Shown piece by piece: positions 11,479 through 31,904 of a DNA stretch of 34,002 nucleotides. The notes beneath the pieces were generated by a model. The model worked only from the letters and a program-made list of their open reading frames with translations. It had not been told where the DNA came from and searched no databases. Source of the DNA: Candidatus Pacearchaeota archaeon (GTDB taxonomy: Archaea > Nanobdellota > Nanobdellia > Pacearchaeales > GW2011-AR1); the NCBI GenBank assembly GCA_023142835.1, contig JAGLIS010000010.1, positions 1-34,002 on the forward strand, read 5' to 3'. Every line of letters starts with the position of its first letter. The first letter of the stretch is position 1. Both the position numbers and the translations under genes were made by a program.

Positions 11479-11514
11479 TTGTAAATACCAAAACTAAATT
11501 GATGGAGGAAAAAT

Positions 11515-11703
11515 ATGGAAGGATATTGTGTTAAGTGTAAAGAAAAGAAAGAAATGAAAGACGTTAAGATGACGCAGACCGCTCGTGGAGGTTACATGGG
11601 CAAGGGTAATTGCAGTAGCTGTGGTTGCGGAATGTGCCGAATTATGTCTAAAGACAACGCTGAAAAAGCGGTCGCAGATGGTTCAGCTGAAAAAGCATAC
11701 TAA
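11515..11703 (+). CDS. Small zinc-ribbon protein, DUF5679-like
   Basis: YCVKCKEKKEM...GNCSSCGCGM; GGAGG RBS upstream. Confidence 0.75.
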   Translation: MEGYCVKCKEKKEMKDVKMTQTARGGYMGKGNCSSCGCGMCRIMSKDNAEKAVADGSAEKAY

Positions 11704-11712
11704 ATCAATTAT

Positions 11713-11731
11713 TCCCCTTAAGGGGATTTTT
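11713..11731 (+). terminator. Palindrome followed by T-run
   Basis: TCCCCTTAAGGGGA perfect palindrome followed by TTTTT, 10 nt after the stop codon. Confidence 0.5.
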
Positions 11732-11744
11732 AATTTTTAATTTT

Positions 11745-11785
11745 GTATTACAGCAGTTATCCAAATCTGAGTTGGACAACTACCT
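11745..11785 (+). repeat. Degenerate attC-like hairpin
   Basis: GTATTAC-AGCA-GTTATCCAA-ATCTGAG-TTGGACAAC; same core-N4-arm layout as the other sites; mismatches are G.T on the minus strand; right core is lost. Confidence 0.4.
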
Positions 11786-11913
11786 TTTTCAATCTAAAAC
11801 GTTTCAAAAACTACATCTATTTTAAAAAATCGGCAAATTGAAAACTCTTCGGAATTTTTAATTTCGTCAAAACCGCTTGCAATTATTCTTCGTCCTCACC
11901 TTCGACTCGGATT

Positions 11914-11989
11914 CCTTAACATCTATTCAACCTCCGCCTCACCCTTCAGGGAAATTGCTTCGGCAACTTCTTTGAACTTATTGTTAATT
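11914..11989 (+). repeat. attC-like recombination site
   Basis: CCTTAAC-ATCT-ATTCAA...(two internal hairpins with TTC/GAA loops)...TTGAAC-TTATT-GTTAATT. Confidence 0.65.
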
Positions 11990-12661
11990 CCAATAAAAAA
12001 TCGGCTTAATATAGAAAGGACAGGATTTCCAACACATATCTAAGGTATAAAAAATCTCTTTTCAGGTTGCTTAGATTGTTTGTATATTCTTTCTGCTTTT
12101 AAAAAAGTATTATTTTTGTATCCCCGCTCCAACCAAGGCATTAAACCTCTTGCATTCAGAGCATATAAAGATCCCAATTGTGCTATTACTTCTTTATCAT
12201 CGACTTCTTTTAGATTTATTTTTACGCCTTGTTCTTCAAATAATCTGTCAGTAAGAGCATCTAATTGTCCAAGATAATCCAATACATGTGTTTCTTCATG
12301 ACTCCTGTTCTGAATATCTGATTTTTTTGTTGATCTTTCAAGATAAAAAATATGCAAATTAAATCCTTCTTCATAATATTTTCCAATTGCATATATATAT
12401 TCATCTGCATTATAATTTGAATTATCTAAACCATATAATTTATCTACTTTCATAATTGTATCAAGGATAGAATCAACATACCCATCATCATGATACTTGT
12501 ATGATCCTGATGGCACAGTAAATCCTAATACTTGAAAACGTGCTTTATTCATAGTTATAAGATTATAATTATTATTTATAAATATTTATATTTATCAGTC
12601 ATTTAATAGTAGTAAAGCAATCCTACCCTTAACTAAAACCTAATTTCTCTTAATCCTAAAA
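11984..12661. mobile_element. Decayed integron-like cassette 1
   Basis: Starts at G|TTAA with a 25-nt motif 21/25 identical to the cassette 3 start; ends in TTCTCTTAATCCT (12645-12657), identical to 25922-25934; right boundary approximate. Confidence 0.55.
12040..12552 (-). CDS. Hypothetical protein with HExxH motif (possible zincin-like metallopeptidase)
   Basis: SHEETH motif with downstream KEVIA; 170 aa; TATA upstream. Confidence 0.6.
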   Translation of the reverse strand: MNKARFQVLGFTVPSGSYKYHDDGYVDSILDTIMKVDKLYGLDNSNYNADEYIYAIGKYYEEGFNLHIFYLERSTKKSDIQNRSHEETHVLDYLGQLDALTDRLFEEQGVKINLKEVDDKEVIAQLGSLYALNARGLMPWLERGYKNNTFLKAERIYKQSKQPEKRFFIP

Positions 12662-12717
12662 TTATAAAGTGAACCTATACACGATTATTTTATAAACTGT
12701 ATAATTTTTCTGTTACC

Positions 12718-13026
12718 ATGAGTAAAGATATTCTAGTGAAAGTTCATAAGTCTTATAGGTGGGTTGTAGCGGTTTGTGACGAGGAGCTTTTAGGACGAAA
12801 ACTAATCGAGGGGAAAAGAGCTTTAGATATATCTGGAAATTTTTTCAAAGGTGAAGCAATGAATTATCAAGATGCGAAGGAAGAAATTTCTCGATGCAAT
12901 GACGAGGACGCAACATTTAATTTCGTAGGAAACAGATCAGTTGAGGTAGCAAAAGAATTAGGAATCGTGAATGACGAGAGTATCATAGAAATCGAAGGGA
13001 TCCCTTTCGCATTAGCACTTCTCTAG
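12718..13026 (+). CDS. DUF424 family protein
   Basis: VVAVCDEELLG, FFKGE, ATFNFVGNRSV, IEGIPFA. Confidence 0.9.
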   Translation: MSKDILVKVHKSYRWVVAVCDEELLGRKLIEGKRALDISGNFFKGEAMNYQDAKEEISRCNDEDATFNFVGNRSVEVAKELGIVNDESIIEIEGIPFALALL

Positions 13027-13063
13027 TGTGAAGTTTTATAAACGAATTTTAGCTGAGTTATAT

Positions 13064-13420
13064 ATGGCGTTTAGCAAATTTAAAGATAAATCAAAAAAAA
13101 ATAAAGCAAAAGTTTTAGTACCTGGGCAGGAAAGCTCAAGTTGGGTAAGGTTGCCCCGTGACAGAGAAGTAATAGGAATTATTACACAAAGATGTGGAGG
13201 TTCGCGAATGATAGTCTCGTGCATGGATGGAAAGACACGAAATTGCAAAGTACCTGGTAGAAACAGGCGAGGACTTTGGATAAGGGAAGGCGACGCAATA
13301 ATTATTGAACCTTGGGAATTTGACGAAGATAAAGGAGATGTTTTATTTAAATACACTCCAAATCAAGTCGTAAAGTTAAAATCGATGGGCAAGTTAGACA
13401 GCGGGAAAAGCGAATTTTAA
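13064..13420 (+). CDS. eif1a: Translation initiation factor aIF-1A
   Basis: VRLP...GGSRMIVSCMDGKTRNCKVPG...LWIREGD...PWEF; ATG at 13064. Confidence 0.95.
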   Translation: MAFSKFKDKSKKNKAKVLVPGQESSSWVRLPRDREVIGIITQRCGGSRMIVSCMDGKTRNCKVPGRNRRGLWIREGDAIIIEPWEFDEDKGDVLFKYTPNQVVKLKSMGKLDSGKSEF

Positions 13421-13454
13421 TTAATCTTATAAACATCTATTCTTTTTATATATC

Positions 13455-13979
13455 ATGAGAAACATAAAAGTTGAGAAAATGAATAAGATTAAGAAAGCCG
13501 TGCCAAGGATTGAAGAAAAAATTAAAATTAAAATTTCTTTCCAAAAAAATCAGATTACAATTAAAGGTTCGGAGCTTAACGAATACTTAGTTGAAAAGAT
13601 TGTACAGGCTATAGCTTTCGGGTTTGATGTTGAAGACGCCTTGTTGTTGAAAAATGAGGATTTTGTTCTAGAGTTTATTGATATCAAAAGCCATACTCAT
13701 CGAAAGAACCTAAAAGAAGTTCGGGCAAGAGTTATCGGAACCGGGGGAAAGGCAAGAAAGACAATCGAGAATCTTACAGGGGCAGTTATTGTCATCCAAG
13801 TTAATAGAATGGGAGTTATTGTTGACAGCGAACACCTTGACTCAGCCACCCAAGCAATCATATCTTTAATCCAAGGGGCAAAGCACGGAAATGTTTTTGC
13901 ATACCTAGAAAAGCAAAATGTCTCCCGACGAAAGTTTAGGGGAGAAGATTTGGGATTAAAGAAAGGAATCGAAGAATAG
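13455..13979 (+). CDS. KH-domain pre-rRNA processing protein Dim2/Pno1
   Basis: AIAFGFDVEDAL, RARVIGTGGKARKTIENLT, LIQGAKHGNVFAYLE. Confidence 0.9.
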   Translation: MRNIKVEKMNKIKKAVPRIEEKIKIKISFQKNQITIKGSELNEYLVEKIVQAIAFGFDVEDALLLKNEDFVLEFIDIKSHTHRKNLKEVRARVIGTGGKARKTIENLTGAVIVIQVNRMGVIVDSEHLDSATQAIISLIQGAKHGNVFAYLEKQNVSRRKFRGEDLGLKKGIEE

Positions 13980-14094
13980 ACCCCAAATATTTTATAGGAC
14001 AAGTTTTAAAAATGGTTTAAATTTCTAGTTATTATTGCTTCTACCCGAAGCTTAAATTAAAAATTTATAAGGGTAGAAAGTTTGCAAATCCAAA

Positions 14095-14167
14095 GCTTCG
14101 GTAGCTCAGCAGGTAGAGCGCACGGCTGTTAACCGTGTTGTCGGAGGTTCGAGTCCTCCCCGAAGCG
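14095..14167 (+). tRNA. tRNA-Asn (GTT)
   Basis: Acceptor GCTTCGG/CCGAAGC, D arm GCTC/GAGC, anticodon arm CACGG-CTGTTAA-CCGTG, T arm GGAGG-TTCGAGT-CCTCC, discriminator G; CCA not encoded. Confidence 0.97.
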
Positions 14168-14430
14168 TTTTTATTTGAATCTGAGACAAGTCGGAGGCGA
14201 AGGATTCGCTTCGAGCAATACTAAATTCTAAATATCCTTTTGTAAAATGTTAATTGTGAATAGAGTCCTCCTCGACGATTTTGTTTTTGAATTTAATTTT
14301 TCTGATTGATTCTTCAAAATATCGCTTATTTTTATTAAAATCATGTTGTTATTATCAAATTAAACGATAAGTTTATAAAAAGACTACTTAATTTATTGGT
14401 ATAAAATTTAAAAATTAGAAAAATTTAAAA

Positions 14431-15666
14431 ATGGAAAATATACTACACATCGCTCCACCAGTAATACCTGTTTCGGAAGATATATTATATGCAGGTACGG
14501 AAAGAATTGTTTTAGCATTAAATAAAATTTTTCACGAGCAAGGATATAATTCTTTTGTTGCCGCTTCAGGAGATTCAAATTTGGGTGATTATGGAACATT
14601 AATAAAAACTATTCCTCGAAGCCTTTGGAACGCGAAAGGTATAGAACGTGAAACTATACAATCTGAGAGATTCTATAGCGATCATTATAGGAAAAGTTTG
14701 GATTTTGCAATAGAAAATGAAATTCAAATTATTCAAGATCATCCAGGATTATATCTTATAGCATCTAAAGAATATAATAAACGAGAGGTAAATATACCTG
14801 TAGTCACCACAATTCATGGGGATGTTTCTGTTGAAAGAGAAGGAGAAATGTATGAGAAATTTAAAGGATTACAGGATGGGAAAAACCCTGTTTCTTTTGT
14901 ATGTATAAGTAATTCTCAAAAAGAGAGGTATGAAAATTTAGCAGGTATAAAAATTGATAAAATGATTTATAATGGAGTTCCAACAGACGAACTTCAATTT
15001 AATGATAGGAAACAAAATTATCTCTTATGGCTCGGGAGAGTTTCTTCTATAAAAGGAACAGATTTGGCAGTTAAGGTAGCACAAGAGACTGGAATTCCAC
15101 TAATTATTGCTGGAGAGGTTCATACCCCTGATAAAAAATTTTATGAGTCTAAGATTGAACCTTATTTAACTAATTCAATAACAAGTGGAAGTCTTAGGGA
15201 TCAAAAGATTAAAAGGCAAGATTTAATAGAGCGATTAAGAGAAGGAGATCAAATTGTTGGAGACGGAGAAATATTTTTTATTGGTCCAGTTAATAATCAT
15301 CAGAAATCGGTTTTATATGGTAATGCAACAACACTATTGCAACCAAATCGATGGGATGAGCCATTTGGGCTTGTTATGGCAGAGGCACTGGCTACTGGAA
15401 CTCCAGTTATAGGGACTTACACAGGTTCAATTCCAGAAGTAGTTAAGGAAAATATAACAGGGTACATAATCAGGCCTGATTGGAAAGATAATAATAAGTT
15501 AAATGGGTTTAATGAGGAATCAATGGTAAGAGATTTGGTTTCTGCAGTTGATAAAATTAAAAAGATTAATCCTTATGATTGTAGAAAAGATGCTGAAGAG
15601 AGATTTGGTCAAGAGGTTATGGGAAAAAATTACTTGGAATTTTATAAAGAGATATTAAGCAGATAA
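14431..15666 (+). CDS. GT4 family glycosyltransferase
   Basis: YAGTERIV, VVTTIHG, IYNGV, WLGRVSSIKG, WDEPFGLVMAEALATGTPVI. Confidence 0.9.
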   Translation: MENILHIAPPVIPVSEDILYAGTERIVLALNKIFHEQGYNSFVAASGDSNLGDYGTLIKTIPRSLWNAKGIERETIQSERFYSDHYRKSLDFAIENEIQIIQDHPGLYLIASKEYNKREVNIPVVTTIHGDVSVEREGEMYEKFKGLQDGKNPVSFVCISNSQKERYENLAGIKIDKMIYNGVPTDELQFNDRKQNYLLWLGRVSSIKGTDLAVKVAQETGIPLIIAGEVHTPDKKFYESKIEPYLTNSITSGSLRDQKIKRQDLIERLREGDQIVGDGEIFFIGPVNNHQKSVLYGNATTLLQPNRWDEPFGLVMAEALATGTPVIGTYTGSIPEVVKENITGYIIRPDWKDNNKLNGFNEESMVRDLVSAVDKIKKINPYDCRKDAEERFGQEVMGKNYLEFYKEILSR

Positions 15667-15695
15667 TTTATAAACTTCCCCAACCTCGTTATCCC

Positions 15696-16262
15696 ATGCA
15701 ATTACAAGATGCTATAAAAAAGAGGAAAAGTGTAAGGAGATATTTTGATAAAAAACCTGATTGGAGAAAAATTATTCGGGCTATTGATATGGCAAGATTT
15801 GCTCCAAGTGCTGGGAATAATTTTGTGTTAAGATTTATTTTGGTTTCAGATGAAAAGAAAATTGCGAAATTGGCTGAGGCCGCGCAACAGGATTTTGTTG
15901 GGACTGCAAAGTATGTCGTAGTGGCTGTTAGTGATGATTCTAAATTAGTCAGAAGTTACGGGGATAAAGGTGTTCGTTATGCTCCGCAACAAGCAGGTGC
16001 GTCTATCCAAAATTTTTTACTCGCATTAACGGAGCAGGACTTAGTCACCACTTGGGTAGGTCATTTTTATGATGAACAAGTTAAGGAAGTATTAGATATT
16101 CCTGAAAACTTATCTGTTGAGGGGATTTTCCCTATTGGAAAGGAGACTAAGGTTAAAACTTCTGAAAAACGAAAAATAGATTTAGAAAATATTCTTTATT
16201 TTGATAAGTGGAAAAATAGAAAGATGACGCCTCAGACTATTGTTAGTGTGGAAGGGGTTTAA
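15696..16262 (+). CDS. Nitroreductase family protein
   Basis: IKKRKSVRRY, APSAGN, IQNFLLALTEQDLVTTWVG. Confidence 0.9.
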   Translation: MQLQDAIKKRKSVRRYFDKKPDWRKIIRAIDMARFAPSAGNNFVLRFILVSDEKKIAKLAEAAQQDFVGTAKYVVVAVSDDSKLVRSYGDKGVRYAPQQAGASIQNFLLALTEQDLVTTWVGHFYDEQVKEVLDIPENLSVEGIFPIGKETKVKTSEKRKIDLENILYFDKWKNRKMTPQTIVSVEGV

Positions 16263-16327
16263 TCTAAAAATTCTTATCCCCCTAAAAAACGGGGGAAAAT
16301 AAAAAAATAAAATAAAAATTATGTTGT

Positions 16328-17407
16328 TTAACTTAAATCATCTAAGCCAAGTTCGTTTACACTTATTGTGCTTTCATTATCGAAAGAACTAGAATTCTTT
16401 CCCAAGATATAAGGGGATTTTACTCCAGTCATAATTGTTATAACTCTTACTCTTCCTTGGAATTCTTTGTTAACTCTCGCTCCGATAATGACTTGTGCTT
16501 CTGGAGATAAATTTTCAGTTACAAGACGACCGATACTATCGAATTCTTCAAGCTTTAAATCTGGACCACACGTGATGTGAACTAATGCGCCTGTTGCTCC
16601 TCGATAATCTACATCTAATAACGGGTGTGTTAAAGCTTGTTGAACTGCAGCGTCTACTCGCGCGTTGGAATTATCCTCGCCGATACCGATAACCGCTACA
16701 TCTCCGTTCTTCATAATTGAAGAAACATCTGCATAGTCTAAGTTAATCAGTGAAGGTAGTGTGATTGTTTCGACAATACCTTTAATCATTGTAGATACAA
16801 GTTCATTCGCAACTGCAAAAGCCTGCTCCATTGGTAACTGACCTGCGATATCAACTAATCGATTATTGTCTAATACGATTACAGTATCTACAGCTTCTCT
16901 TAGTTCTTGAAGACCGAATTCCGCCTTATCAATTCTTGCTTTCTCAGCCTCGAAAGGCATTGTAACTACTGCGATAACTACCGCTCCTGCTTCCTTAGCT
17001 AGTTGAGCAACTACTGGAATAGCTCCTGTACCAGAACCTCCTCCCATTCCCGCTAGAACGAAAACCATATCCGAATTCGAAACAGCTTTCTTCAAGTCAG
17101 TAAGGGATTCTTTTGCAGCCTCTCTTCCTCGCTTAGGATAACCACCACATCCGAGACCTCTTGTCAGTTCTTTACCGATAAGAATTTTCTCGTCACATTT
17201 TGTAATTGATAAGTGAAGTGCGTCAGTGTTGACACCGTAAATCGTAGCACCATTAATACCTTTATTGAAAAGCCAAGTAGCCATGTTACATCCGCAACCG
17301 CCACATGCTAAAACTTTGATGTTAGCTTTTCCAGCTCTCAAATCATCAAAATTAATGGAATTTGCTTCTGCAGATTGTATAGCTTCTTTAGCAAAATCTA
17401 ATGTCAT
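16328..17407 (-). CDS. ftsZ: Cell division protein FtsZ (probably FtsZ2 clade)
   Basis: GGCGCN, NTDALHL, TRGLG, AGMGGGSGTG, LDNNRL, INLDYAD; GGAGG RBS. Confidence 0.95.
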   Translation of the reverse strand: MTLDFAKEAIQSAEANSINFDDLRAGKANIKVLACGGCGCNMATWLFNKGINGATIYGVNTDALHLSITKCDEKILIGKELTRGLGCGGYPKRGREAAKESLTDLKKAVSNSDMVFVLAGMGGGSGTGAIPVVAQLAKEAGAVVIAVVTMPFEAEKARIDKAEFGLQELREAVDTVIVLDNNRLVDIAGQLPMEQAFAVANELVSTMIKGIVETITLPSLINLDYADVSSIMKNGDVAVIGIGEDNSNARVDAAVQQALTHPLLDVDYRGATGALVHITCGPDLKLEEFDSIGRLVTENLSPEAQVIIGARVNKEFQGRVRVITIMTGVKSPYILGKNSSSFDNESTISVNELGLDDLS

Positions 17408-17558
17408 TTTCTTTTTTATTTAACCTCCTTTCAAATCTTTTAGTATGATAAGATTGGTATGATAGTTTCCTGAACTTTCTTTCAATGTATAGTTCATGTA
17501 ATTTGAAGATGTTTTTTATTTAAAAATATATATGTAGTTGGAAAGTTGTAATTAAATA

Positions 17559-18710
17559 TTAAGCGGCTCGTTTCCAGTTTTCTGTTAGGTTATGTCTATT
17601 AGATAATCCATCCAATATATATTTTAAATTAGTTGTTCTTGATTCAATTGCCTTATCTCCAACTCCTGAAAAAATTTCTAATGTTCCATTAGGTTTAACC
17701 CTGAAAGCTGTTGCAAAATTTATATTTTTTATTATTGTTTCATCCCTTGAGTTTTCAATAAAAGGATAATCAGGATTGGGTTCTAGTAGCGGATCTCTTA
17801 TTATTGAAATTATTTCATAGGTATTTGGATCAAATTCTACAACGGTGCTATTATAAAAATATTCTATTAAATTTCCTCTCCTTCTTTTTATTTTTTCAAC
17901 GCCATGGACGAGTCCAATTATTCTTCCGTCAATGTTAATAGGAGTTCCTCCAAGTCCAACTTTTTCTGATGCCCAATATTCTCCAGGGTATAAAATGGTT
18001 TGTTCTTCTAATTTTCCAAACGTGTCTACCCAGAAATCTTTAGTTTGTAAATCTTCAATTGAATTAAACGGTGTTGCCTGTACACTATCTCCAACCCTAT
18101 GAATAAGTATTGATTTTCCTTTAGGAGTATACACTATTGTTGCATCCTTATCCATTATATAGTCCTTTAAGTTAGAATTCTTTTTTCTTTTTTCTTGGAG
18201 TTCTTTATAAAATATTGAACCATAATAAGAATCTTTTCCTCCAGAAAATTTGATGCCTTCTTCTAGTCTAATTTGTGGACCGATTATTCCGCGTTTGTGT
18301 ATTTTTTTGAAATCGTCTGTTGTTGCTAATGCTATTCTTGCTCCGAGGTCTTCATTGAATGCCGTATAAATTATGTTAAAAGTTCCATTTTTTGATATTC
18401 GCGGATCTTCAACTCCATCGATTTCATATTCATGTTCTGGAGATAATATTACCCTGCCACTAGGGTATTCTTTTATTACAGATCTTTCTCCATAGTTATT
18501 TTTCCACTTTTCTCTTGCTCTATATAAAAATATATCATCATCTTTATCACCCCATAATGCAGGATTGCATACGGCAAGCTCTCCTTTTTTTTCATCTGGA
18601 GAAAGAAATATTGATTTTTTATCTCTTACAATTTCAACTAAGTTAGAATTACATGAATTTTGACGGGGGGGAGGTTCGTCGCTTAAGGTAGATTCCCCAT
18701 TTTCTTCCAT
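17559..18710 (-). CDS. GH130-like glycosidase / mannoside phosphorylase (beta-propeller)
   Basis: CNPA, LYRA, GVEDPRI, IIYTAF, DKDA, HRV, KVGLGGTPI, FSGVGD. Confidence 0.8.
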   Translation of the reverse strand: MEENGESTLSDEPPPRQNSCNSNLVEIVRDKKSIFLSPDEKKGELAVCNPALWGDKDDDIFLYRAREKWKNNYGERSVIKEYPSGRVILSPEHEYEIDGVEDPRISKNGTFNIIYTAFNEDLGARIALATTDDFKKIHKRGIIGPQIRLEEGIKFSGGKDSYYGSIFYKELQEKRKKNSNLKDYIMDKDATIVYTPKGKSILIHRVGDSVQATPFNSIEDLQTKDFWVDTFGKLEEQTILYPGEYWASEKVGLGGTPINIDGRIIGLVHGVEKIKRRRGNLIEYFYNSTVVEFDPNTYEIISIIRDPLLEPNPDYPFIENSRDETIIKNINFATAFRVKPNGTLEIFSGVGDKAIESRTTNLKYILDGLSNRHNLTENWKRAA

Positions 18711-18806
18711 AGCTTAAAAAATTCATGAAGGTTTATAAGTATAATGGTTCTCGATAAAATTTGTTTAGAGTTTATAAACAAACCTCTAGATTCATACAAA
18801 ATTAAA

Positions 18807-19817
18807 TTATTCTTTCAAAAAATTTCGAATATTCTCTTTGAATTTTTCTAAATCTTTTGTAAGGATTTGTCCTCCTGCGGCAGGAATATGACCGCCTGCG
18901 GATGCGTCATCTAATCCCTTAATTCCTGCCCTCAATAGTTCTGCCATGTCTTTCGTTTTAGATTGATTTCTTGCACTTATCGAGAGATTTTCTTCATCAA
19001 TAGGTGTTGCAAAAATTATTGTATCTTCAGGATTATTCCTACTGATTATTGCAGAAAGAGGTTTTTTGATAAAATATTTTGTTTCGAAGTAGAAAAAGTA
19101 CACATCTCCCAATTTTTTCTTTTCAAAATCAAATCTTTTTATTATCTTAGAAAGTTCATCTTCAATTTGTTCTGAATATTTTTTCAGTTTTTTGAAATCT
19201 TCTAAGGAGTTTATCTCTTTCATTATCTTGAATGCTTCTTGAAGATCTTCCTGAAAATAAACTAATGTATTGCCAAGAACATGTGAGACTTCCTCTTTGA
19301 ATTTTTCTAGGGAGATTCCCTCTTTATTTAGAAATTCGTTTATGAACTTGTCATTTTCAGGATATAAATCTCCTGCATCAGTTATTGTTCCAGCGACACT
19401 TAGCCAAGGTTTTATATTTGTGAGTTCTCCCGCGGTTCTTGACGACGGGATATATCCCTCTTCAGAAGTTCTTAACTCTAAAATTTCCTCGGGAATTTTT
19501 TCTCTTTCAGGATGATGATCTGTATAAAATATTTCTTTATCTGTGGGAAGTGAAAGCTCTTCGATTCCTCCAGGAGCTATATCTGTAATAATTATTTTAT
19601 TAAATTTTTCTAAACTTATTTTCTTATCCCATCTACAAAAATTAAAAATGAAGTTCTCAACTTCTGCACCTTTATTTTTACACCAATCATAAAATATAAT
19701 CCCTGATGCGAATCCATCTCCGTCGTTGTGGTGGATAACTGCTACGCAATCTTTATCATTGATATTATCTAAAAACTCTTTCGCTTGACTAAATGTTATC
19801 TTTGGCATTTTATTCAA
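18807..19817 (-). CDS. DHH/DHHA1 phosphoesterase (RecJ/NrnA-like)
   Basis: HHNDGDG, ITD, TDHH, SAR, GGHIPAAG. Confidence 0.9.
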   Translation of the reverse strand: MNKMPKITFSQAKEFLDNINDKDCVAVIHHNDGDGFASGIIFYDWCKNKGAEVENFIFNFCRWDKKISLEKFNKIIITDIAPGGIEELSLPTDKEIFYTDHHPEREKIPEEILELRTSEEGYIPSSRTAGELTNIKPWLSVAGTITDAGDLYPENDKFINEFLNKEGISLEKFKEEVSHVLGNTLVYFQEDLQEAFKIMKEINSLEDFKKLKKYSEQIEDELSKIIKRFDFEKKKLGDVYFFYFETKYFIKKPLSAIISRNNPEDTIIFATPIDEENLSISARNQSKTKDMAELLRAGIKGLDDASAGGHIPAAGGQILTKDLEKFKENIRNFLKE

Positions 19818-21141
19818 AACTTTTTGCCAATTTAAAAATTAATTCTTCTTGGAAATGTGGCGCTAAAATCTGTAGTCCAACATCTTTGTTATCTATCTTT
19901 CCCACAGGAATAGAGATTGCTGGAAGTCCTGCAATAGATGCTGGCGTCGTAAAAACATCATAATCATACATATCCTTAACTGAAATTTTCTCTCCAATCT
20001 TATGAGCTGTTCGTGGGACTGTCGGGAGGATTATTGCATCGACCTCTTGAAATATCTCATCAAATTGTTGTTTAATAAAGTTCCTTGCTTTCAAAGCTTC
20101 CCTATAATATTTCCCTTCATGTTCGGCCTTAGTAATCTCTGAACCACCAATTATCCTTCGAACGACTTCAGGACCCGCAACCTCTTCAATTTTTTTCCCA
20201 AATCTTCTTCCATCAAATTTTCTCGTAGCTGAAAAAAATTCAGTATAAACAATTATATAATAAGTTTGAATCACAATATCTAAGGGGAGATTTATTTTTT
20301 TAATTTTCCAATTATTTTTTTTAGCTATTTCATTAGTTTTCAATTCGATTAACTCTGTGATTTCTTCCGAACAAAAATCTCTAACATTAACCAACCCAAT
20401 AATTCCTTTTTTAGATGATTTTTCTTTTGGAGCATCTTTTGTTGTCTGGTCAAAATTATCTTGTCCTTTAATTATGCTAAAAATTAGTTTTGCATCTTCG
20501 GAGGAATTTGTTAGAGGTCCAATGCAGTCAAAAGACATTGTCATATCTATCAGCCCGTAACGTGATACCACACCATAAGTTGGCTTTAATCCAGTTACCC
20601 CGCAATGCGATGCGGGATTTCTAATTGAGCCACCCGTATCAGAACCTAATGCAAAATCACAAAGTTCTGCAGCAACTGCCGACGCTGAACCTGATGAAGA
20701 ACCTCCAGGAATCAAGTCTTCATTTCGAGGATTTTTTGTTGGACCAAAAGCAGAAGTTTCTCCCGAAGCCCCGCAAGCAAACTCGTCCATATTTACCATT
20801 CCCAAAAGTATTGCGTCCTCTTCGAGAAGCTTATTAATTACTGTAGCATTATATGGCGAGACATATCCCTCAAGAACCTTAGAACCACAATTCGTTTCCA
20901 ACCCTTTCACAGAGATATTAGATTTTACTGCAAAGCAAAGCCCTGCTAATTTCCCTGCAGTTCCGTCTTTTATTCGTTTATCGACGGCTTTCGCTTGTTC
21001 AATAGCATTTTCATTTAATCTTAAAAAAATGTTTAGGTCTTTTGTCTTCGGTGTTGAAATTTTTTTTGAAAATGTCATAACATTCTTCACAGCAGTTAAT
21101 TCGCCTGATTTGAATTTTTTGAGTTTAGATTTGAGTGTCAT
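19810..21141 (-). CDS. gatA: Asp/Glu-tRNA amidotransferase subunit A
   Basis: Amidase signature NMDEFACG, PGGSSSGSA, GSDTGGSIRNPA, LKPTYG, EVVRRI. Confidence 0.95.
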   Translation of the reverse strand: MTLKSKLKKFKSGELTAVKNVMTFSKKISTPKTKDLNIFLRLNENAIEQAKAVDKRIKDGTAGKLAGLCFAVKSNISVKGLETNCGSKVLEGYVSPYNATVINKLLEEDAILLGMVNMDEFACGASGETSAFGPTKNPRNEDLIPGGSSSGSASAVAAELCDFALGSDTGGSIRNPASHCGVTGLKPTYGVVSRYGLIDMTMSFDCIGPLTNSSEDAKLIFSIIKGQDNFDQTTKDAPKEKSSKKGIIGLVNVRDFCSEEITELIELKTNEIAKKNNWKIKKINLPLDIVIQTYYIIVYTEFFSATRKFDGRRFGKKIEEVAGPEVVRRIIGGSEITKAEHEGKYYREALKARNFIKQQFDEIFQEVDAIILPTVPRTAHKIGEKISVKDMYDYDVFTTPASIAGLPAISIPVGKIDNKDVGLQILAPHFQEELIFKLAKSFE

Positions 21142-21845
21142 ATTTTAAGAATTTTTTCTATATTTTTAGTTGTTATTAATTCCTTTTCTTTTGGGGAAAT
21201 ATTTAATGAATCTATCATTGCTAGTGATACTCGAGGATCTCCAAAAGGATAATCGCTTCCAAGAATTATTTTTTCTGCTCCAACCATTTCATATATTTTC
21301 TTTAAGATAATCGAGTATTGTATTCCTGATGTTTCAAAATATACATTATCTGGAAATTCGTAATCGTGCAATTTAAAGAATGTTTTTGTTACAGAACCTG
21401 AATGAACAGCTATTACTGGAACCTCGACCTGTTTTGCGAGACTTATAATTTTTTTTAATGTGGAGTATTCCTTAGCCTCATTTGTATGTATAAAAACTGG
21501 AAAATTTATTTTATTTACGAACTCTATCACTTTTTTATCGTCAATAGGTATTTGTCCAATATCAGGATGAAATTTTATTGCCTTATATCTAGAATCTATT
21601 TTATCTGGAATATCAAAAACATTAAACCAGTAAATAGGAATTAATGCAGAATCTTTTTCCGATTCCTCTAATACAGAATTATTATTGGGAGTGGTGTTGT
21701 GTGAAAAATTTTCTGGGAGTCCAATTGGAGTTGCACAATATTTTGTTATTCCAGTTTCTTTTAAAATTAATTTATATTCTTCTTGATTACCCCAATTTTT
21801 TCCCTTAAAAGGTAACGATCCTAAATGCATGTGTGCGTCAATCAT
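21138..21845 (-). CDS. Metal-dependent amidohydrolase (Amidohydro_2-like)
   Basis: IDAHMH, IKFHP, FIHT, AVHSG, VYFETS, LGSDYPF; ATG at 21845 overlaps the gatC end and the stop overlaps the gatA start. Confidence 0.85.
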   Translation of the reverse strand: MIDAHMHLGSLPFKGKNWGNQEEYKLILKETGITKYCATPIGLPENFSHNTTPNNNSVLEESEKDSALIPIYWFNVFDIPDKIDSRYKAIKFHPDIGQIPIDDKKVIEFVNKINFPVFIHTNEAKEYSTLKKIISLAKQVEVPVIAVHSGSVTKTFFKLHDYEFPDNVYFETSGIQYSIILKKIYEMVGAEKIILGSDYPFGDPRVSLAMIDSLNISPKEKELITTKNIEKILKI

Positions 21846-22104
21846 TTTTCCACCCACCCTTCTCAGCCACAATTAAATCTTCCTCGACAAATGGAGCGTT
21901 TAGAAACATTAAATCCTTAAAGTCAGAATCTGTGTTCCAACCATCACCTTCTTCCCGAAATCCATCACCATTTTCAAAATGCCCTTCGCTAGCTTTAATC
22001 TTAGATAATTTCGATGCAAATTCATCTAAAAGTTTTTTTGCATCTCTCTTGATATCTTCCATTTCTTTATCAGTTATTTCACGCCACTCAAAACTTTCTT
22101 CCAT
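21838..22104 (-). CDS. gatC: Putative amidotransferase subunit C (divergent GatC)
   Basis: 88 aa; helical N-terminus and FREE...MFLNAP..EEDLIVAEK C-terminus; upstream of gatA. Confidence 0.65.
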   Translation of the reverse strand: MEESFEWREITDKEMEDIKRDAKKLLDEFASKLSKIKASEGHFENGDGFREEGDGWNTDSDFKDLMFLNAPFVEEDLIVAEKGGWKND

Positions 22105-22155
22105 TTAAATTATCGGATGCAGAAGTTTATAAATCTGGGGTTATTTGATATTTTT

Positions 22156-22491
22156 ATGGAAGAATGCATATTTTGTAAGATTATTCGTGGAGAGATACCT
22201 TGTCAGAAAGTTTTAGAAGATGATAATTTTGTTGTAATCAGGGATGCAAATCCTAAGGTTGTTGATCATTTACTTGTAATTCCTAGGGAACACTATGGGA
22301 ATTTTTTAGAGATACCTTCTGAGTTATATAGGAAACTGTTGGAGATTACAAAAAGAGCTATAGAAAAATTAGATGTAAATGAATTTAATTTAGTTGTGAA
22401 TAATGGTAAATCTGCGGGGCAGTTAATTTCACATGCTCATTTACATATTTTGCCGAGGAAAGAAGGCGACGGGTTTAGGTTGAATGTTTAA
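22156..22491 (+). CDS. HIT family nucleotide hydrolase
   Basis: CIFCKII, HLLVIP, NNGKSAGQ, HAHLH. Confidence 0.93.
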   Translation: MEECIFCKIIRGEIPCQKVLEDDNFVVIRDANPKVVDHLLVIPREHYGNFLEIPSELYRKLLEITKRAIEKLDVNEFNLVVNNGKSAGQLISHAHLHILPRKEGDGFRLNV

Positions 22492-22547
22492 CATCGCGAT
22501 TAAGAGGAAATTTCAGCAAGAAATTTCCTCTTAATCGCTGTTATACG
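22486..22547 (-). repeat. attC-like recombination site
   Basis: Perfect 19-bp arms GCGATTAAGAGGAAATTTC (22496-22514) / (22520-22538), closed by TAACA/TGTTA with a 2-nt bulge; outer cores GTTTAAC and GTTATAC. Confidence 0.8.
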
Positions 22548-23347
22548 TTTTTTCTGCAAGAAAAAATCGTCGAAGGCGACAGTATGACGCAGACACCAAA
22601 CCCTAATTTGAAAACTTAAAAGCCCATTTCCGCAACATTAATAACGAGTATATAGTTTCTATAAGACAATGAAAACTAATGTAGGGTGGGACATCGGTTC
22701 ATTGGTATATGATTTATTTACTGGTAAGGTTGATGAACAACTTTATTTGGAAGTCCTTTTAGCTCTTGGTACACTAGATGGGATTAAACTTGATGAATTT
22801 GGTTGTGGAACAGGAAATTTAACTGGTAGATTGCCAGAAACAACTAAAATTAGAGCTGTTGATTATTCTCCTATTGCAATAGCTAAAGCAAAACAAAAAA
22901 CAAGTAAAAATGTGGGTTTTTTTATTATGGATTTTTATCAAGAACAACCAAATGGTTACAAACCAGATAAGATTGTGGCTTGCAGAAGTCTTTATCATTC
23001 AGACCTGTCATTAAGTTTAGGGATATTATCTAGACATTTAGGAGATGGAGGGGAAGCTATTATTGCACATCCAACTGAAAATTGGAGAAAATATGTTACA
23101 CCAATAGTTAATGGAAAAAGAGAATTTAATTTTGTTCAATTTGTAAAATCAAATTGGAGATTTGCAAACCGCATGGGTGTGCCTTATGCATTATTCAGTG
23201 CTGATGAATTTGAAAGAGTAGGGAAACAACATTTTGATGAAGTTATAATAAATTCTGCAGGTTATGATACTCATTATCTTGTTCAGTTAAGGAAAAGGGC
23301 TTTTTCTAAAAAATAATTTGTTTGGTGTTGAGTAATATTGCGTATAA
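22492..23347. mobile_element. Solitary integron-like cassette 2 (856 bp)
   Basis: TAACAT at both junctions (22489-22494, 23345-23350); GTTATACG (22540-22547) exactly complementary to CGTATAAC (23341-23348); removal restores GTTTAAC-ATGAG-GTTATCA. Confidence 0.75.
22669..23316 (+). CDS. Class I SAM-dependent methyltransferase (cassette cargo)
   Basis: DEFGCGTG motif I, AVDYSP..I..AK motif II, RSLYH. Confidence 0.85.
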   Translation: MKTNVGWDIGSLVYDLFTGKVDEQLYLEVLLALGTLDGIKLDEFGCGTGNLTGRLPETTKIRAVDYSPIAIAKAKQKTSKNVGFFIMDFYQEQPNGYKPDKIVACRSLYHSDLSLSLGILSRHLGDGGEAIIAHPTENWRKYVTPIVNGKREFNFVQFVKSNWRFANRMGVPYALFSADEFERVGKQHFDEVIINSAGYDTHYLVQLRKRAFSKK

Positions 23348-23360
23348 CATGAGGTTATCA
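23342..23360. other. attI/attG-like simple site (AAC-N5-GTT) at cassette junction
   Basis: GTATAAC-ATGAG-GTTATCA: two inverted 7-bp cores separated by 5 bp. Confidence 0.65.
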
Positions 23361-23419
23361 ATAGTTTATTATTGATAATCTCCTAATAAGTATAGAAAAC
23401 AATAATTTCATCCATCTAA

Positions 23420-24802
23420 CTACTTCCCTTTCTTCCCAATATCCAACTTAATATGAACATCTTTTAACTGCCTGTCCGAAAGCGGGCTAGGTGCATCAAC
23501 CATCAAATCCTTCGCCTCCTTATTCTTCGGAAACGCAATCGTCTCCCTAATAGATTCTACTCCAAGAATCACTTGAATTAATCTATCCAATCCCCACGCT
23601 ATTCCACCATGTGGCGGTGCTCCAAATTTTAGTGCGTCTAATAAGAAACCAAATTTCTCTTTCTGTTCTTTCTTCCCGATTCCAAGAACCTCGAAAACTT
23701 TCGCTTGAATATCTTCTTCATGAATTCTTATCGAGCCTCCACATATCTCAACCCCATTTAGAACTGTATCATACGCAATTGATTTCGCGGTTTTAGGGTC
23801 TTTGTTAAACGACTCCATTTCTGGATGTGTAAACGGGTGATGTATTGCAACAGTTTTATTTTCTTCTTTTGAATATTCAAATAATGGAAAATCTACAACC
23901 CAACAAAAAGCGAATTCCTTGGAGTCATTTTTATCTTTTCTTAAATCAGGTCTATCTGTTTTATATTTTTTCATAGCCTCATCATGAGTAATTTTTTGAA
24001 AGGGTGTTTTAACTTCGACGTTTAAAATTTCTTTCCAAATCTTTTTTATAATCTTCTCGGTTAGAGCCATAACATCTTCTTGACTAACAAAAGACATCTC
24101 GATATCAAGTTGTGTAAATTCGGGTTGTCTGTCCGACCGAAGATCCTCGTCCCTCATGCATCTTGCAATCTGAAAATATTTCTCAAATCCTGCCACCATC
24201 AAAAGTTGCTTAAATAACTGGGGTGATTGTGGAAGCGCGAAAAATTTCCCAGGCTGTGTTCTCGACGGAACGATATAATCCCTAGCTCCTTCTGGCGTAG
24301 ACTTCGCAAGCATCGGAGTCTCAAACTCATTAAACCCTTCCTCATATAATGCATCTCGAATTATCCTAACAACTTTACTCCTCAAAATTAAATTCTTCTG
24401 CATCTCTGGTCTTCTCAAATCTAAATACCTATATTTCAGACGGATATCCTCGCCAACTTCATCATTATCTATGTCAAACGGGAGTGCTGAACATTTATTG
24501 TATATTTCAAGTTCCTGAATTTTTACCTCGACATTTCCAGCAGGTGAATTTTTATTCTCCGTTCCCGTCGGCCTTGAACTAACATTACCTTTAATTTTAA
24601 TACATGATTCCTTCGTCAAAGATTTTGCTATTTCGAAATTTTTCTCATCCTTCGCAGTAACAATTGTTTGGACCGAACCAGTCACATCCCTTATTTCTAA
24701 AAAAATTAACTTACCGTGCTCTCTAATTGTATCAACCCATCCAGCTATTTCAACTTCATTTCCCTCGAGAGAAGAGAGCTCCTTAATCATTGTTCTTGCC
24801 AT
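23420..24802 (-). CDS. aspS: Aspartyl-tRNA synthetase, bacterial type lacking the GAD insertion, probably non-discriminating
   Basis: RLKYRYLDLR, STPEGARDY, ALPQSPQLFKQLLM, RDEDLRSDRQPEFTQLDIEMSF, GAPPHGGIAWGLDR, IAFPK; only 460 aa. Confidence 0.95.
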   Translation of the reverse strand: MARTMIKELSSLEGNEVEIAGWVDTIREHGKLIFLEIRDVTGSVQTIVTAKDEKNFEIAKSLTKESCIKIKGNVSSRPTGTENKNSPAGNVEVKIQELEIYNKCSALPFDIDNDEVGEDIRLKYRYLDLRRPEMQKNLILRSKVVRIIRDALYEEGFNEFETPMLAKSTPEGARDYIVPSRTQPGKFFALPQSPQLFKQLLMVAGFEKYFQIARCMRDEDLRSDRQPEFTQLDIEMSFVSQEDVMALTEKIIKKIWKEILNVEVKTPFQKITHDEAMKKYKTDRPDLRKDKNDSKEFAFCWVVDFPLFEYSKEENKTVAIHHPFTHPEMESFNKDPKTAKSIAYDTVLNGVEICGGSIRIHEEDIQAKVFEVLGIGKKEQKEKFGFLLDALKFGAPPHGGIAWGLDRLIQVILGVESIRETIAFPKNKEAKDLMVDAPSPLSDRQLKDVHIKLDIGKKGK

Positions 24803-24871
24803 AATCAGATATATTATCAGGCTTTTTAAAATTGTGGTTAAGTTTTTATAGTATCTTTATTTTGTTGAATT

Positions 24872-25033
24872 ATGAATGAAGAAAACAAACGACTTTTGGT
24901 TGCTGGAATAGCTGGAGCATTAGGGGGTGCTTTGGGTGCAGTTTGTGGTTCAAGTAGCTTATTCGTCGTCATGTGTGTTTCCCTTGGTGGTGCGGTTTTG
25001 ATTGCTTGGGGAATTAATGGGATGTTTAATTAA
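24872..25033 (+). CDS. 53-aa glycine-zipper membrane protein (not in the ORF track)
   Basis: MNEENKRLLVAGIAGALGGALGAVCGSSSLFVVMCVSLGGAVLIAWGINGMFN; TTTTTATA about 22 nt upstream. Confidence 0.7.
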   Translation: MNEENKRLLVAGIAGALGGALGAVCGSSSLFVVMCVSLGGAVLIAWGINGMFN

Positions 25034-25092
25034 AGTTCTGTAAACATCCTAAAATGATATCTTTTGAGAAATAAATTTCGCAGTACTGCATG

Positions 25093-25938
25093 TTAAACTC
25101 AATAAAAAATCAGCTAAAAATTGAAGGGGGCAAAAATTTATTTGGTTATTTTCACAATACCTAGAAGTGCATCTTTTTTGTTTTTTGGATTCTTAAATTT
25201 ATATAAAAAATTTATCAATTTTCTTCTAACAGGTGGTGCTTTTGGATTTACCTTTCTTGCTTTTTTCAACTTTGTTGAATCATAAATTAGTAATAAATCA
25301 ATTCGAACTGGATAACCTCTATCCAAAGGTGTGTGCTCGTAAAAATGCCAAACTGTATCACCAAATTCTGTGGGGTATTTGTTATCTTTTGGAATGACTA
25401 ACGTTCCATTCTTAATTGTGATTGTTCCTGCTTGAATATCATAATCATACCCACTGAATTCATCATGACACACACCTTTTCTTTTCAGATCATATTTGTC
25501 TGTCCCAGTTCTCAAAACAATATTTGCTAATTTATTCAATGATAATCCCTTATGATCATCTGATCCAATAGCACGAAAAATATATTTACCATCCGAAAAA
25601 CTTTTTTCCAATACTGCATCTACCTTTTTTCCCAATTTTAAATAATTAGGTTTCTTCTTCACATTATATTCAGGAAGATACACTTCTATTACTTTAACTA
25701 CCATATTATACTTCACAATTATATACCTTTATTAAATTTTTGCCCCTTGATTCTTTTTATTAATGGTGCTTCGCACTTGATACGCTGACTTTTTACTTTG
25801 GATTTTTCCCTTCGGGAACGTTGCACTAAAATCCAATCCCTTGCGGGAGAATTTAACAGCGATTAAGAGATTCCGAAGTCTTGCAGACTTCTCCATCCAA
25901 ATTTTCACCTACGGCGAAAACTTCTCTTAATCCTGATG
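25093..25938. mobile_element. Solitary integron-like cassette 3 (846 bp)
   Basis: Start G|TTAAACTC complementary (8/9) to GAATTTAAC (25849-25857); ATGT at both junctions; terminal attC-like site shares 16 nt with the cassette 2 site. Confidence 0.7.
25138..25704 (-). CDS. Hypothetical protein (cassette cargo)
   Basis: About 188 aa from ATG 25704 (track start GTG 25716); TATA-like TTTAATAA about 25 nt upstream. Confidence 0.75.
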   Translation of the reverse strand: MVVKVIEVYLPEYNVKKKPNYLKLGKKVDAVLEKSFSDGKYIFRAIGSDDHKGLSLNKLANIVLRTGTDKYDLKRKGVCHDEFSGYDYDIQAGTITIKNGTLVIPKDNKYPTEFGDTVWHFYEHTPLDRGYPVRIDLLLIYDSTKLKKARKVNPKAPPVRRKLINFLYKFKNPKNKKDALLGIVKITK

Positions 25939-25944
25939 TCATCC
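25849..25944 (+). repeat. attC-like recombination site
   Basis: GAATTTAAC-AGC-GATTAAGAGA...TCTCTTAATC-CTGAT-GTC with two internal hairpins (GAAGTCT-TGC-AGACTTC; TTTTCACC-TAC-GGCGAAAA). Confidence 0.75.
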
Positions 25945-25948
25945 ATAA

Positions 25949-27373
25949 TTAAATAACTTCCTTCAAAACATCCGCAACCTCTTTCCCAGAAACTTTTCCC
26001 CTAAATTTTCCCATAACCAATCCCATGTACGCCCCCTGCGACAACCCTGGATTCTCTTTAACAAATTTCTCAACTTCTTCTTTCAAATTAATATCTGATT
26101 TTTCTATTGCCTTATCAAGAGTTTCCCCCTGAACAATTTTTTGCATAACCGTCCTAACATCATTCTTCGAAATCTTTTTCCCAACCTCTTCTAAAATCGC
26201 CTCTAACAAATGAACATTTAAAATTTCACTAACTTCAGCCAAAGATTTCTTTTCTTTTTTTGCAATCTCCATCTGGAAAAGCGTTAAAGATTTTGCTATC
26301 AATTCAGGACTCTCGATAACATGATTAAGTGTTTTAAAATCCTCGACCTTATTCTGTTTCAAAATCAACTTTACTAACTCTTCATTTAACCCAAACTCAT
26401 CTAAATAAGACCTATGCTCGGATGCAAGTTTTGGAAGATTATTTTTAGCTTCGTTAATTAACTCTCGTGAAATTTTCAAAAGTGGGACATCAGTTTCAGG
26501 ATACATTCTTGCAGCTCCTGGCATTGGTCGTTGAAATACTGAAGTCCCATCGGGAAGTGCTCCACGAACTTCGTTTTTACATTCATTATTTTTAAGGCAT
26601 TCTTTCTGTCGAGAAATTTCTATATCAATCGTCTTAATCATCATCTTAGGATCTTGGAATCCTTTAATTTCAACTCGCTTACTTCCCTTAATCGAAACAT
26701 TGACATCTTGACGAATCGTTCCAATTCCTCTCTTTACATTACATGCCCTCAATATCTCCCCAATTTTCATGGCGACTTCCTTACATTGCTTAGGAGAATA
26801 AATTTCTGGTTTTGTAGTAATTTCAACAAGCGGGATACCCAACCTATCTAACTTAAATGTCTTCGTTTTCTCATCCTCCGAAACTTTCCTCGCTGAATCT
26901 TCTTCTAAGGCAATAGTTTCAATCCCAACCTTTCCCTCAGGAGTTTCGACATAACCATCATGAGCAATCAACACAGTTCTTTGAAATCCAGAAGTGTTCG
27001 TTCCATCGACGACAGTTTTTCTCATTACTTGAGTTACTGGAAATGTATTACAATGAAACAATTCTGCAATTTGTAAAACTATCTTTAACGCATCAACATT
27101 AATTTCTCCCGGAGGAGATTCATCAAGTTCGACTAGACAGTTAGTATCATAAACATGGTAAATAAAAGTTTTATTTTTCATTTTTTCATGGGCAGCAGCG
27201 ACGTCAATTTCTCCAGTCTCACCTACCACAGGATTCAATATTCTCTCAACAGTATAGTCTGGCTCGTCATTTCTTAACAAAGAAGGACAATCACAAAATA
27301 GTTTATTCGTATTAAGTTGCTGATGAATTTCCAATCCAATCTTAAGTCCATCCTTTTTATAATCATGTTCCAT
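25949..27373 (-). CDS. gatE: Glu-tRNA(Gln) amidotransferase subunit E, short form
   Basis: GLEIHQQL, CLVELDE.PP, MRKTVVDGTNTSGFQRT, RGIGTIRQDVNVSI, RPMPGAARMYPETD. Confidence 0.95.
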   Translation of the reverse strand: MEHDYKKDGLKIGLEIHQQLNTNKLFCDCPSLLRNDEPDYTVERILNPVVGETGEIDVAAAHEKMKNKTFIYHVYDTNCLVELDESPPGEINVDALKIVLQIAELFHCNTFPVTQVMRKTVVDGTNTSGFQRTVLIAHDGYVETPEGKVGIETIALEEDSARKVSEDEKTKTFKLDRLGIPLVEITTKPEIYSPKQCKEVAMKIGEILRACNVKRGIGTIRQDVNVSIKGSKRVEIKGFQDPKMMIKTIDIEISRQKECLKNNECKNEVRGALPDGTSVFQRPMPGAARMYPETDVPLLKISRELINEAKNNLPKLASEHRSYLDEFGLNEELVKLILKQNKVEDFKTLNHVIESPELIAKSLTLFQMEIAKKEKKSLAEVSEILNVHLLEAILEEVGKKISKNDVRTVMQKIVQGETLDKAIEKSDINLKEEVEKFVKENPGLSQGAYMGLVMGKFRGKVSGKEVADVLKEVI

Positions 27374-27434
27374 ATTTTTACTTAAGACAATAGCTTTAAA
27401 TAATCTTTCTTCCTGATTTTTGTAAGGAGGTTAT

Positions 27435-31890: not shown

Positions 31891-31904
31891 TGGAGTGGTG
31901 GGTG

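Follow-up and report, generated by a model that had tools for sequence, protein, structure and literature searches.

The window analyzed here, 34,002 nucleotides (nt) long, is contig C2 of the assembly of a Candidatus Pacearchaeota archaeon (G000; 802,536 bases in 66 contigs, 33.6% G+C, completeness 81.6%). It carries archaeal housekeeping genes (aIF2-beta, aIF1A, DUF424, FtsZ, GatA/B, AspRS and tRNA-Asn), among which stand three accessory genes flanked by repeat-like sites. These units, the structured repeat family called E, and the tyrosine recombinase found beside E in relatives are the subject of this analysis. Each unit consists of a site, an antisense gene and a second site on the same strand as the first, a pattern that repeats on contigs C65, C39 and C3. 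A covariance model of E (R1) was built from 12 copies and used to search the window and related genomes.

The first unit lies between the DUF5679 and DUF424 genes. Its cargo gene (orf170; 12040-12552, minus strand) encodes 170 amino acids (aa), has no Pfam or NCBIfam family and runs antisense to the sites on either side; contig C53 carries a paralogue together with its flanks. Site E4 (11825-12010, plus strand) is a divergent E-type site assigned by partial homology to the copy on contig C65, whose 5' module it resembles, with small hairpins carrying TTCG/TTCA loops. Its boxes, TAACA at 11917-11921 and TGTTA at 11982-11986, are followed by N4-CAAT, and its DNA fold is weak (z = -2.0/-1.6). On the other side of the gene, TTCTCTTAATCCT followed by a decayed core (12645-12665, plus strand) was read by eye against the family consensus as a remnant of the L'-R' part, the 3' half of an E-type site; R1 did not detect it.

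The second unit lies between the AspRS and HIT genes. Its cargo (22669-23316, plus strand) is a 215-aa S-adenosylmethionine-dependent methyltransferase assigned by Pfam and is antisense to both of its sites. Site B (22480-22586, minus strand) is a compact E-type site found by R1 with filters off (32.3 bits, E value 4.6e-5). Its hairpin of 19 bp, a 2-nt bulge and 5 bp is closed by TAACA/TGTTA, and its DNA fold is very strong (-22.9/-23.1 kcal/mol, z = -9.6 on both strands). The end of B, TGTTA|TTA, incorporates the stop codon of the HIT gene. Site Z (about 23330-23410, minus strand) is a simple site, one hairpin followed by ATGTTATACGCAAT, that is homologous to the attI-like site beside the recombinase gene of the relative G045 (alignment A7) and folds weakly as DNA (z = -2.1/-2.9).

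The third unit follows a 53-aa membrane-protein gene (24872-25033, plus strand) that is conserved in the relatives G012, G005 and G055 and forms the left flank of the insertion, outside the element. Site Y (25034-25115, plus strand) is an unstructured simple site ending in ATGTTAAACTCAAT, homologous to the attI-like region beside the recombinase gene of G057 and to a site on contig C66 (alignment A6, 72% mean column identity). Its DNA fold has a z score of about 0, as expected of a double-stranded site, and its R1 score of 7.9 bits is not significant. The cargo gene (orf192; 25138-25716, minus strand) encodes 188-192 aa, has no family and is antisense to Y and E1. Site E1 (25792-25953, plus strand) is a full-length E-type site with all seven helices that scored 171.3 bits with R1. 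Its 3' end reads GATG (25935-25938), then TCATCCATAA, then the GatB stop codon, and its attC-like part folds as DNA with -13.3 kcal/mol on the plus strand and -16.4 kcal/mol on the minus strand. An earlier note on this DNA had described all three genes as bounded by members of one repeat family; R1 directly supports this for E1 and B, and E4, Z and Y, which it missed, owe their assignment to homologous sites elsewhere.

Comparison with relatives identifies all three genes as insertions. The genus has a conserved backbone, orf413-DUF2127-GatB-(53-aa gene)-AspRS-HIT-GatC-GatA. G012, which is the closest relative and whose AspRS is 92% identical, and G005 have the AspRS and HIT stop codons a few bases apart (5 nt in G012), and in both 13-14 nt separate GatB from the 53-aa gene. 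In G000 the first spacer holds 22492-23419 (B, methyltransferase, Z) and the second holds 25034 to about 25948 (Y, orf192, E1); in other relatives these two positions are occupied by 1-2.8 kb of different genes. None of the relatives compared has the methyltransferase gene between AspRS and HIT, orf192 is absent between GatB and AspRS in all 16 compared, and orf170 is absent from the DUF5679-DUF424 locus of 8. The latter locus is empty in G045 and holds E4, orf170 and the L'-R' remnant in G000. A locus on contig C65 behaves likewise: it is empty in G012 and G004, carries Z-orf129-E3 plus two genes in G000, and has different cargo flanked by a Z and an E site in G055. The description of these genes as single cassettes lodged between housekeeping genes thus holds, with empty alleles in close relatives. 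The best-resolved breakpoint is the HIT junction, where ...GCGATG is the end of the element and the core is completed by TTAAACA, a sequence that was already in place and contains the stop codon. This junction fits exchange at G|TTA, the position that the earlier note had predicted for empty-allele breakpoints; the remaining junctions are less clear.

All four sequence statements of the earlier note proved exact. The reverse complement of 22528-22543 equals 25854-25869; TTCTCTTAATCCT starts at 12645 and 25922; and TGTTAA-N3-CAATAAAAAATCRGCT starts at 11982 and 25091. None of these longer strings has a third occurrence in the 802,536-base genome. Shorter motifs are another matter. The 9-mer GATTAAGAG occurs 25 times in the genome, mostly within coding sequence, which is background level, and TGTTA-N4-[CT]AAT shows no genome-wide enrichment (78 observed against a mean of 61.6 and a range of 47-79 in mononucleotide shuffles). 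The short motifs were therefore dropped as evidence, and it is the E family behind them that lifts the observation above chance. That the similarities are accidents of low-complexity, AT-rich intergenic DNA, and the cassettes ordinary strain-specific genes, draws on these background frequencies and on the variable genes that have no sites. This explanation, whose probability is negligible, was rejected because two sites score 171 and 32 bits with R1, a calibrated model, because 35 genomes gave 109 hits and because covariation exceeds all controls.

E is about 160 nt long and has seven helices, and E sites range from about 100 to 200 nt. The 5' domain consists of a 9-bp stem, an inner hairpin and the conserved strand CGTTGCACTAAA, and is followed by a small variable hairpin. 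The long closing stem comprises a near-invariant TAACA/TGTTA helix, an asymmetric internal loop and a 10-bp helix, and closes a three-way junction with two hairpins and the conserved strand TCCAYCCAAAT; N4-CAAT comes after TGTTA. Compensatory changes occur in 25 of 40 predicted pairs in an alignment of 12 copies. In 42 copies gathered by R1, 92.7% of the cells pair and both partners have changed in 33 of the 40 pairs (323 cells). Of 500 shuffles not one was as high, and slid partners were paired at no more than 53%.

The closing stem follows the logic of an integron attC site, an imperfect inverted repeat R''-L''...L'-R' with AAC/GTT triplets, in combining conserved R boxes with an L box in which structure alone is conserved, the two being separated by unpaired bases. 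The TAACA/TGTTA helix is near-invariant (A-U 39, A-U 41 and C-G 40 of 41-42 copies), and the inner 10-bp box keeps its pairing and not its sequence, with 8 of 10 pairs changed on both sides. The internal loop has about 2-3 nt on the 5' side versus 4-5 nt on the 3' side, and putatively corresponds to the extrahelical bases and unpaired spacer of attC. Alignment, covariation and DNA folds thus bear out the earlier view of the sites as folded, attC-like inverted repeats with AAC/GTT boxes, and the covariance search that the earlier note had recommended, over the genome and its relatives, recovered a real family. Two details of that view need correction. The site is larger than had been drawn, with seven helices over about 160 nt, an additional conserved 5' domain and a three-way junction, and the supposed lack of an obvious extrahelical base is contradicted by the asymmetric loop of the family and the 2-nt bulge in B.

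The same structural data raise the question of a functional RNA. E could be chiefly a structured RNA (a 3' untranslated region (UTR) stabilizer, a terminator or a small non-coding RNA) that travels with accessory genes, the recombinases marking hot spots. Strong covariation and conserved loops are typical of functional RNAs, one conserved G.U pair occurs in 28 of 41 copies, and in many arrays E begins 10-20 nt past a co-oriented open reading frame (ORF). When the conserved pair is set aside, however, G.T pairs number 30 versus 49 A.C pairs; G.T does not exceed A.C, which argues against a purely sense-strand RNA. The window and several arrays have cargo genes antisense to E, the outer helix is kept in sequence beyond mere pairing, and the 3' core is common to E and to unstructured sites beside the recombinase gene. 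A scan of the whole window against Rfam 15 at E values up to 1 returned only tRNA-Asn and chance hairpin matches under the gathering scores, from a database that contains no attC family. These observations make a primarily RNA-based explanation unlikely.

The E family was sampled in 41 relatives by BLAST and in 49 genomes of the genus and 151 of the phylum by R1. BLAST found it in 16 of the 41 relatives, and R1 found 109 copies in 35 of the 49 genus genomes and hits in 88 of the 151 phylum genomes, spanning 75 of 118 genera. Self-comparison of intergenic stretches in G000 placed further copies on contigs C66, C65, C53, C3 and C39. Neighboring E sites within 6 kb of each other are always on the same strand (27 of 27 pairs), and locus maps show single ORFs between them. 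The arrays are short, with 1-4 sites detected. Contigs C66 and C53 of G000 also carry co-oriented arrays; in the window, E1 (plus) and B (minus) lie on opposite strands 3.2 kb apart. The cargo is diverse, mostly small enzymes or proteins of no assigned function, and includes restriction, methylation, redox and membrane proteins. One cargo gene occurs at different loci in two genomes (G000 C65 5736-6185 and G055 L034 5241-5696, 71% nucleotide identity), and the G055 copy adjoins an E fragment. The DUF2127 gene (window 27435-27881) belongs to the local backbone in some relatives only, and a DUF2127 gene is also the first cassette beside the recombinase in G015 (L062:2600-3022).

A tyrosine recombinase gene (267-302 aa) lies within 4.3 kb of the first E site at 16 loci in 15 genomes, two of the copies being damaged, and is divergent from the array at all 16. 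Of 10 more distant genomes examined, 5 had the same layout. A maximum-likelihood tree of 35 proteins placed all 15 E-adjacent sequences within one clade of 17 (clade A), which is split with 100/100 support from 18 one-per-genome housekeeping XerA sequences; supports within clades are rough because the ultrafast bootstrap did not fully converge (correlation 0.978 versus 0.99 wanted). The sole recombinase of G000, on contig C51, groups with housekeeping XerA. Clade A is patchily distributed, is present in two copies in G046 and G061, and coexists with the vertically inherited XerA. Control loci around housekeeping xerA genes gave no E hits in 21.

Clade A proteins match NF040815, have XerA of Pyrococcus abyssi (4a8e) as their best solved relative, and conserve the catalytic residues of tyrosine recombinases. 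Close homologues of the recombinase in public databases carry Nanoarchaeota/Pacearchaeota names, in keeping with a DPANN assignment. Their match to the integron-integrase model TIGR02249 falls into two stretches that skip model positions of about 185-236 and scores 199 and 190 bits versus a cutoff of 265. Alignment with VchIntIA (2a3v) likewise breaks into two stretches, and the one reported (query 193-267, chain 244-318) stops where the insert would lie. The additional domain specific to IntI is absent from clade A, which is not an integrase by the standard of IntegronFinder. The earlier note had suggested a trans-acting tyrosine recombinase, either IntI-like or the host Xer enzyme. A tyrosine recombinase is indeed tied to E in relatives, by its uniform divergent position and its own clade, and is there neither of these; sequence comparison identifies it as a dedicated paralogue of XerA.

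An attI-like site lies 50-110 nt upstream of the clade A start codon and ends in (A/T)TGTTA-N4-CAAT, the terminal core of E. This core is present at 14 of 15 loci and in both clade members for which no E was detected, and upstream of one of 18 housekeeping xerA genes. A site beside a divergent integrase gene with a core common to attC is what defines attI, and the relatives have this arrangement. The simple sites Y and Z have only this 3' core, TGTTA-N4-CAAT, in common with E. Each window unit is bounded by two types of site, one attI-like and one E, which would not be expected of a plain cassette with a single attC.

An alternative reading of the enzyme data is that these are elements exploiting Xer, of the integrative mobile element exploiting Xer (IMEX) or pdif-module type, in which housekeeping XerA recombines dif-like cores and clade A is dispensable or otherwise employed. 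The recombinases belong to the XerA family, as noted, G000 has units and only housekeeping XerA, and the core bears what we take to be a resemblance to the Xer-binding arm of dif. Against this, E accompanies clade A genes (15 of 17) but none of the 18 housekeeping xerA genes, and the attI-like core follows the same division. A search from the core for dif-like palindromes yielded one candidate, on contig C19, and no dif site was identified; nor could an 11-6-11 double-stranded dif-like site, the hallmark of host Xer use, be shown for E. Use of the housekeeping enzyme as the principal recombinase is accordingly improbable. The candidate on C19, at about 13458-13490, is a near-perfect palindrome of ATGTTAAAT-type arms as in the core.

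Dispersed hairpin repeats may also derive from insertion sequences (IS), and E could be the end or a non-autonomous derivative (miniature inverted-repeat transposable element, palindrome-associated transposable element (PATE) or repetitive extragenic palindrome (REP)) of an IS200/IS605-type element mobilized by a Y1 HUH transposase. That family typically has hairpin-rich ends, and a 151-aa IS200-like TnpA lies directly upstream of the E copy on contig C3. This IS has its own, different terminal hairpins, and a TnpB domain was not found. Of the 41 relatives, 6 have Y1_Tnp and 16 have E by BLAST, the two coinciding only in G000 and G029, and co-oriented arrays with a tyrosine recombinase do not fit such an element. 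With one TnpA in G000, distinct end hairpins and a different distribution, the tie to an HUH transposase that the earlier note had named as fatal to its proposal was not found, and derivation of E from such elements is very unlikely. At the C3 locus (L019) the Y1 transposase gene (8587-9042, minus strand) has the same GC-rich hairpin before and after it, the E copy (C3:8371-8548) lies directly downstream, and the whole is inside a Z...E unit with a 602-aa antisense gene.

Together, the repeat family, its covarying structure, the co-oriented arrays, the linkage to one recombinase clade, the attI-like sites and the polymorphism between inserted and empty alleles probably represent an integron-like, lineage-wide cassette system with an Xer-derived integrase, of which the window holds three dispersed units. 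In this system E sites would fold on a single strand, with TAACA/TGTTA acting like the R''/R' boxes of attC and the second box like L''/L'. The clade A recombinase would exchange strands at or beside G|TTA of the core, so that single-gene cassettes could be inserted or excised at the attI-like site and between E sites. Core-like secondary sites in short spacers after stop codons would be rarer targets, and the three units of the window, each an antisense gene with a promoter of its own between two sites, would be secondary insertions there. Since the G000 assembly has no dedicated recombinase, these units may be either fixed relics or units mobilized in trans, whether by host XerA or by a recombinase that is incoming or missing from the assembly. 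From sequence patterns we infer the action of the recombinase on the sites, the crossover point, single-strand folding in vivo and the arrival of two-site units at targets that have no site. We lean slightly toward the broader proposal that an integron with a XerA-derived integrase lacking the IntI domain, an attI-like site and large, folded attC-like sites evolved independently in DPANN archaea of the Nanoarchaeota type, occurs in more than half of the phylum genomes sampled, and shuttles single accessory genes into short arrays and into post-stop spacers throughout these minimal genomes.

Several results weigh against this system, or against its simplest form. R1 does not recognize three of the five window sites (E4, Z and Y). 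The empty sites contain no recombination site, although a simple reaction of attC x attC or of attI x attC would be expected to leave one behind. The two-site units of the window are not explained by such chemistry, and the E1/GatB junction is ambiguous. A clade A gene was not found in the 81.6%-complete G000 assembly, which has only housekeeping XerA, and the scattering of cassettes in trans that the earlier note had proposed is accordingly an inference. The 5' domain and the conserved loops (CGTTGCACTAAA and TCCAYCCAAAT) have no role in an integron-like model. Arrays in the sense orientation put E in the 3' UTR, where an RNA role may exist, and the wobble counts lean slightly to the bottom strand and do not settle the choice of strand. 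At DUF5679-DUF424, G012 and G055 (L043 and L048) carry an unrelated 357-aa gene that is not flanked by repeat sites; not all gene turnover thus uses the E system. The relatives are metagenome-assembled genomes and mutual kin, and the genome counts are accordingly not independent.

No recombination product was seen either. The sequencing data were 5 DNA data sets from 2 studies, and contigs of 4 runs were mapped onto window positions 11000-27500. None gave a clean joint skipping 22492-23419 or 25034-25948, in a search that used contigs only and by which rare excision cannot be shown. The contig joints listed have short sides (20-35 nt) or inserts of no known origin and were read as copies from other organisms; E is a common repeat in the community, which causes contigs to break there. 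One contig joins 25901 to 25092 with 30 other letters between them. It was considered as a circle junction and rejected as another E copy.

Sites are also not detectable at every hot spot. When nhmmer and R1 were applied to the variable GatB-AspRS regions of relatives, a single E fragment was found, in G055, and hence not every hot-spot gene has detectable flanking sites. In the same GatB-AspRS hot spot of G055 (locus L034, G055:C14), the 3' end of the 53-aa gene is partially duplicated at about 5855-5935, directly after a Z-type site. It looks like the footprint of repeated insertion at the stop codon of that gene.

Other local features were recorded alongside the units. A 13-nt inverted repeat surrounds orf192, with its left arm GGGGCAAAAATTT at 25127-25139 and its right arm AAATTTTTGCCCC at 25735-25747 (plus strand). 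The string GGGGCAAAA has 15 genome hits versus about 2.6 expected. Inverted pairs of GGGGCAAAAA bracket single cargo genes in the window, on C65 (3668/4086) and on C66 (15045/15487). On C65, C66 and locus L054, GGGGCAAAAA stands after the CAAT of the core and before E, where it could extend the stem around the whole site; its orientation is reversed in the window. A GT4 glycosyltransferase gene (14431-15666) adjoins tRNA-Asn (14095-14167) and has no match at the KH-nitroreductase locus in 8 relatives, the gap there being 347 nt in G055. No E, Y or Z site was detected beside this variable gene. The repeat scan also found a tandem-like 51-nt direct repeat at 31856-31974 (71% identity, copies 68 nt apart).

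If the recombinase acts on these sites, folded-hairpin cassette capture would have arisen from Xer, or diversified from it, outside the IntI lineage, archaea that are ultra-small and depend on hosts would own a dedicated means of swapping accessory genes, and compact new recombinase/site pairs would become available. Assembly breaks at E repeats in these organisms would also be accounted for. An independent DPANN integron would be one of the main drivers of gene flux in a lineage regarded as evolving mostly by loss. The E-linked recombinase would escape standard integron finders because the IntI insert is missing.

Among known systems, IS200/IS605 elements, REP/REP-associated tyrosine transposase (RAYT) systems and PATEs resemble E in being dispersed intergenic hairpin repeats that act as single strands. 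They differ in that E has no link to an HUH transposase and forms co-oriented arrays with a tyrosine recombinase. XerS/difSL and XerH/difH serve chromosome-dimer resolution, occur once per genome and have the site beside the gene. The likeness lies in a single Xer-like recombinase gene directly preceded by its cognate site; clade A, in contrast, is patchy, sometimes double, and stands alongside a vertically inherited XerA. The CTX-phi IMEX has a folded, single-stranded attP, and the pdif modules of Acinetobacter plasmids are single-gene units bounded by recombinase sites and scattered over replicons. E has in common with them the Xer-family chemistry, with CTX-phi the folded-strand site and with pdif the scattered single-gene modules, but the E-linked enzyme is a dedicated paralogue and its sites are arrayed beside its gene.

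Integrons, the textbook bacterial gene-capture device, are the closest comparison. They and E have in common imperfect inverted repeats with AAC...GTT boxes, an inner box kept in structure, an asymmetric unpaired region and a variable terminal structure. Further likenesses are a divergent tyrosine recombinase with an adjacent attI-like site, co-oriented and mostly single-ORF arrays, diverse accessory cargo, and the occurrence of clusters of attC sites lacking integron integrases (CALINs). Ghaly et al. (2022, PMC9668308) report archaeal integrons with IntI-type integrases and CALINs and exclude singleton attCs; in archaea, few IntI genes are described there, the attC clusters are for the most part orphans, and about 1% of genomes are concerned. 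No description of an Xer-like recombinase with attC-like arrays in DPANN archaea was found in the literature searched, and the CALINs of PMC9668308 may include some of the present arrays. The differences are equally clear. The E-linked recombinase is a XerA paralogue that has no IntI insert and scores below integrase cutoffs, E has an extra conserved 5' domain and junction loops, and the arrays are short. Many E units are dispersed and bounded by an attI-like and an E site, and many cargo genes are antisense. The E system thus agrees with integrons in its sites, arrays and attI-like sites, departs from them in the IntI insert, and is for that reason not filed as a canonical integron.

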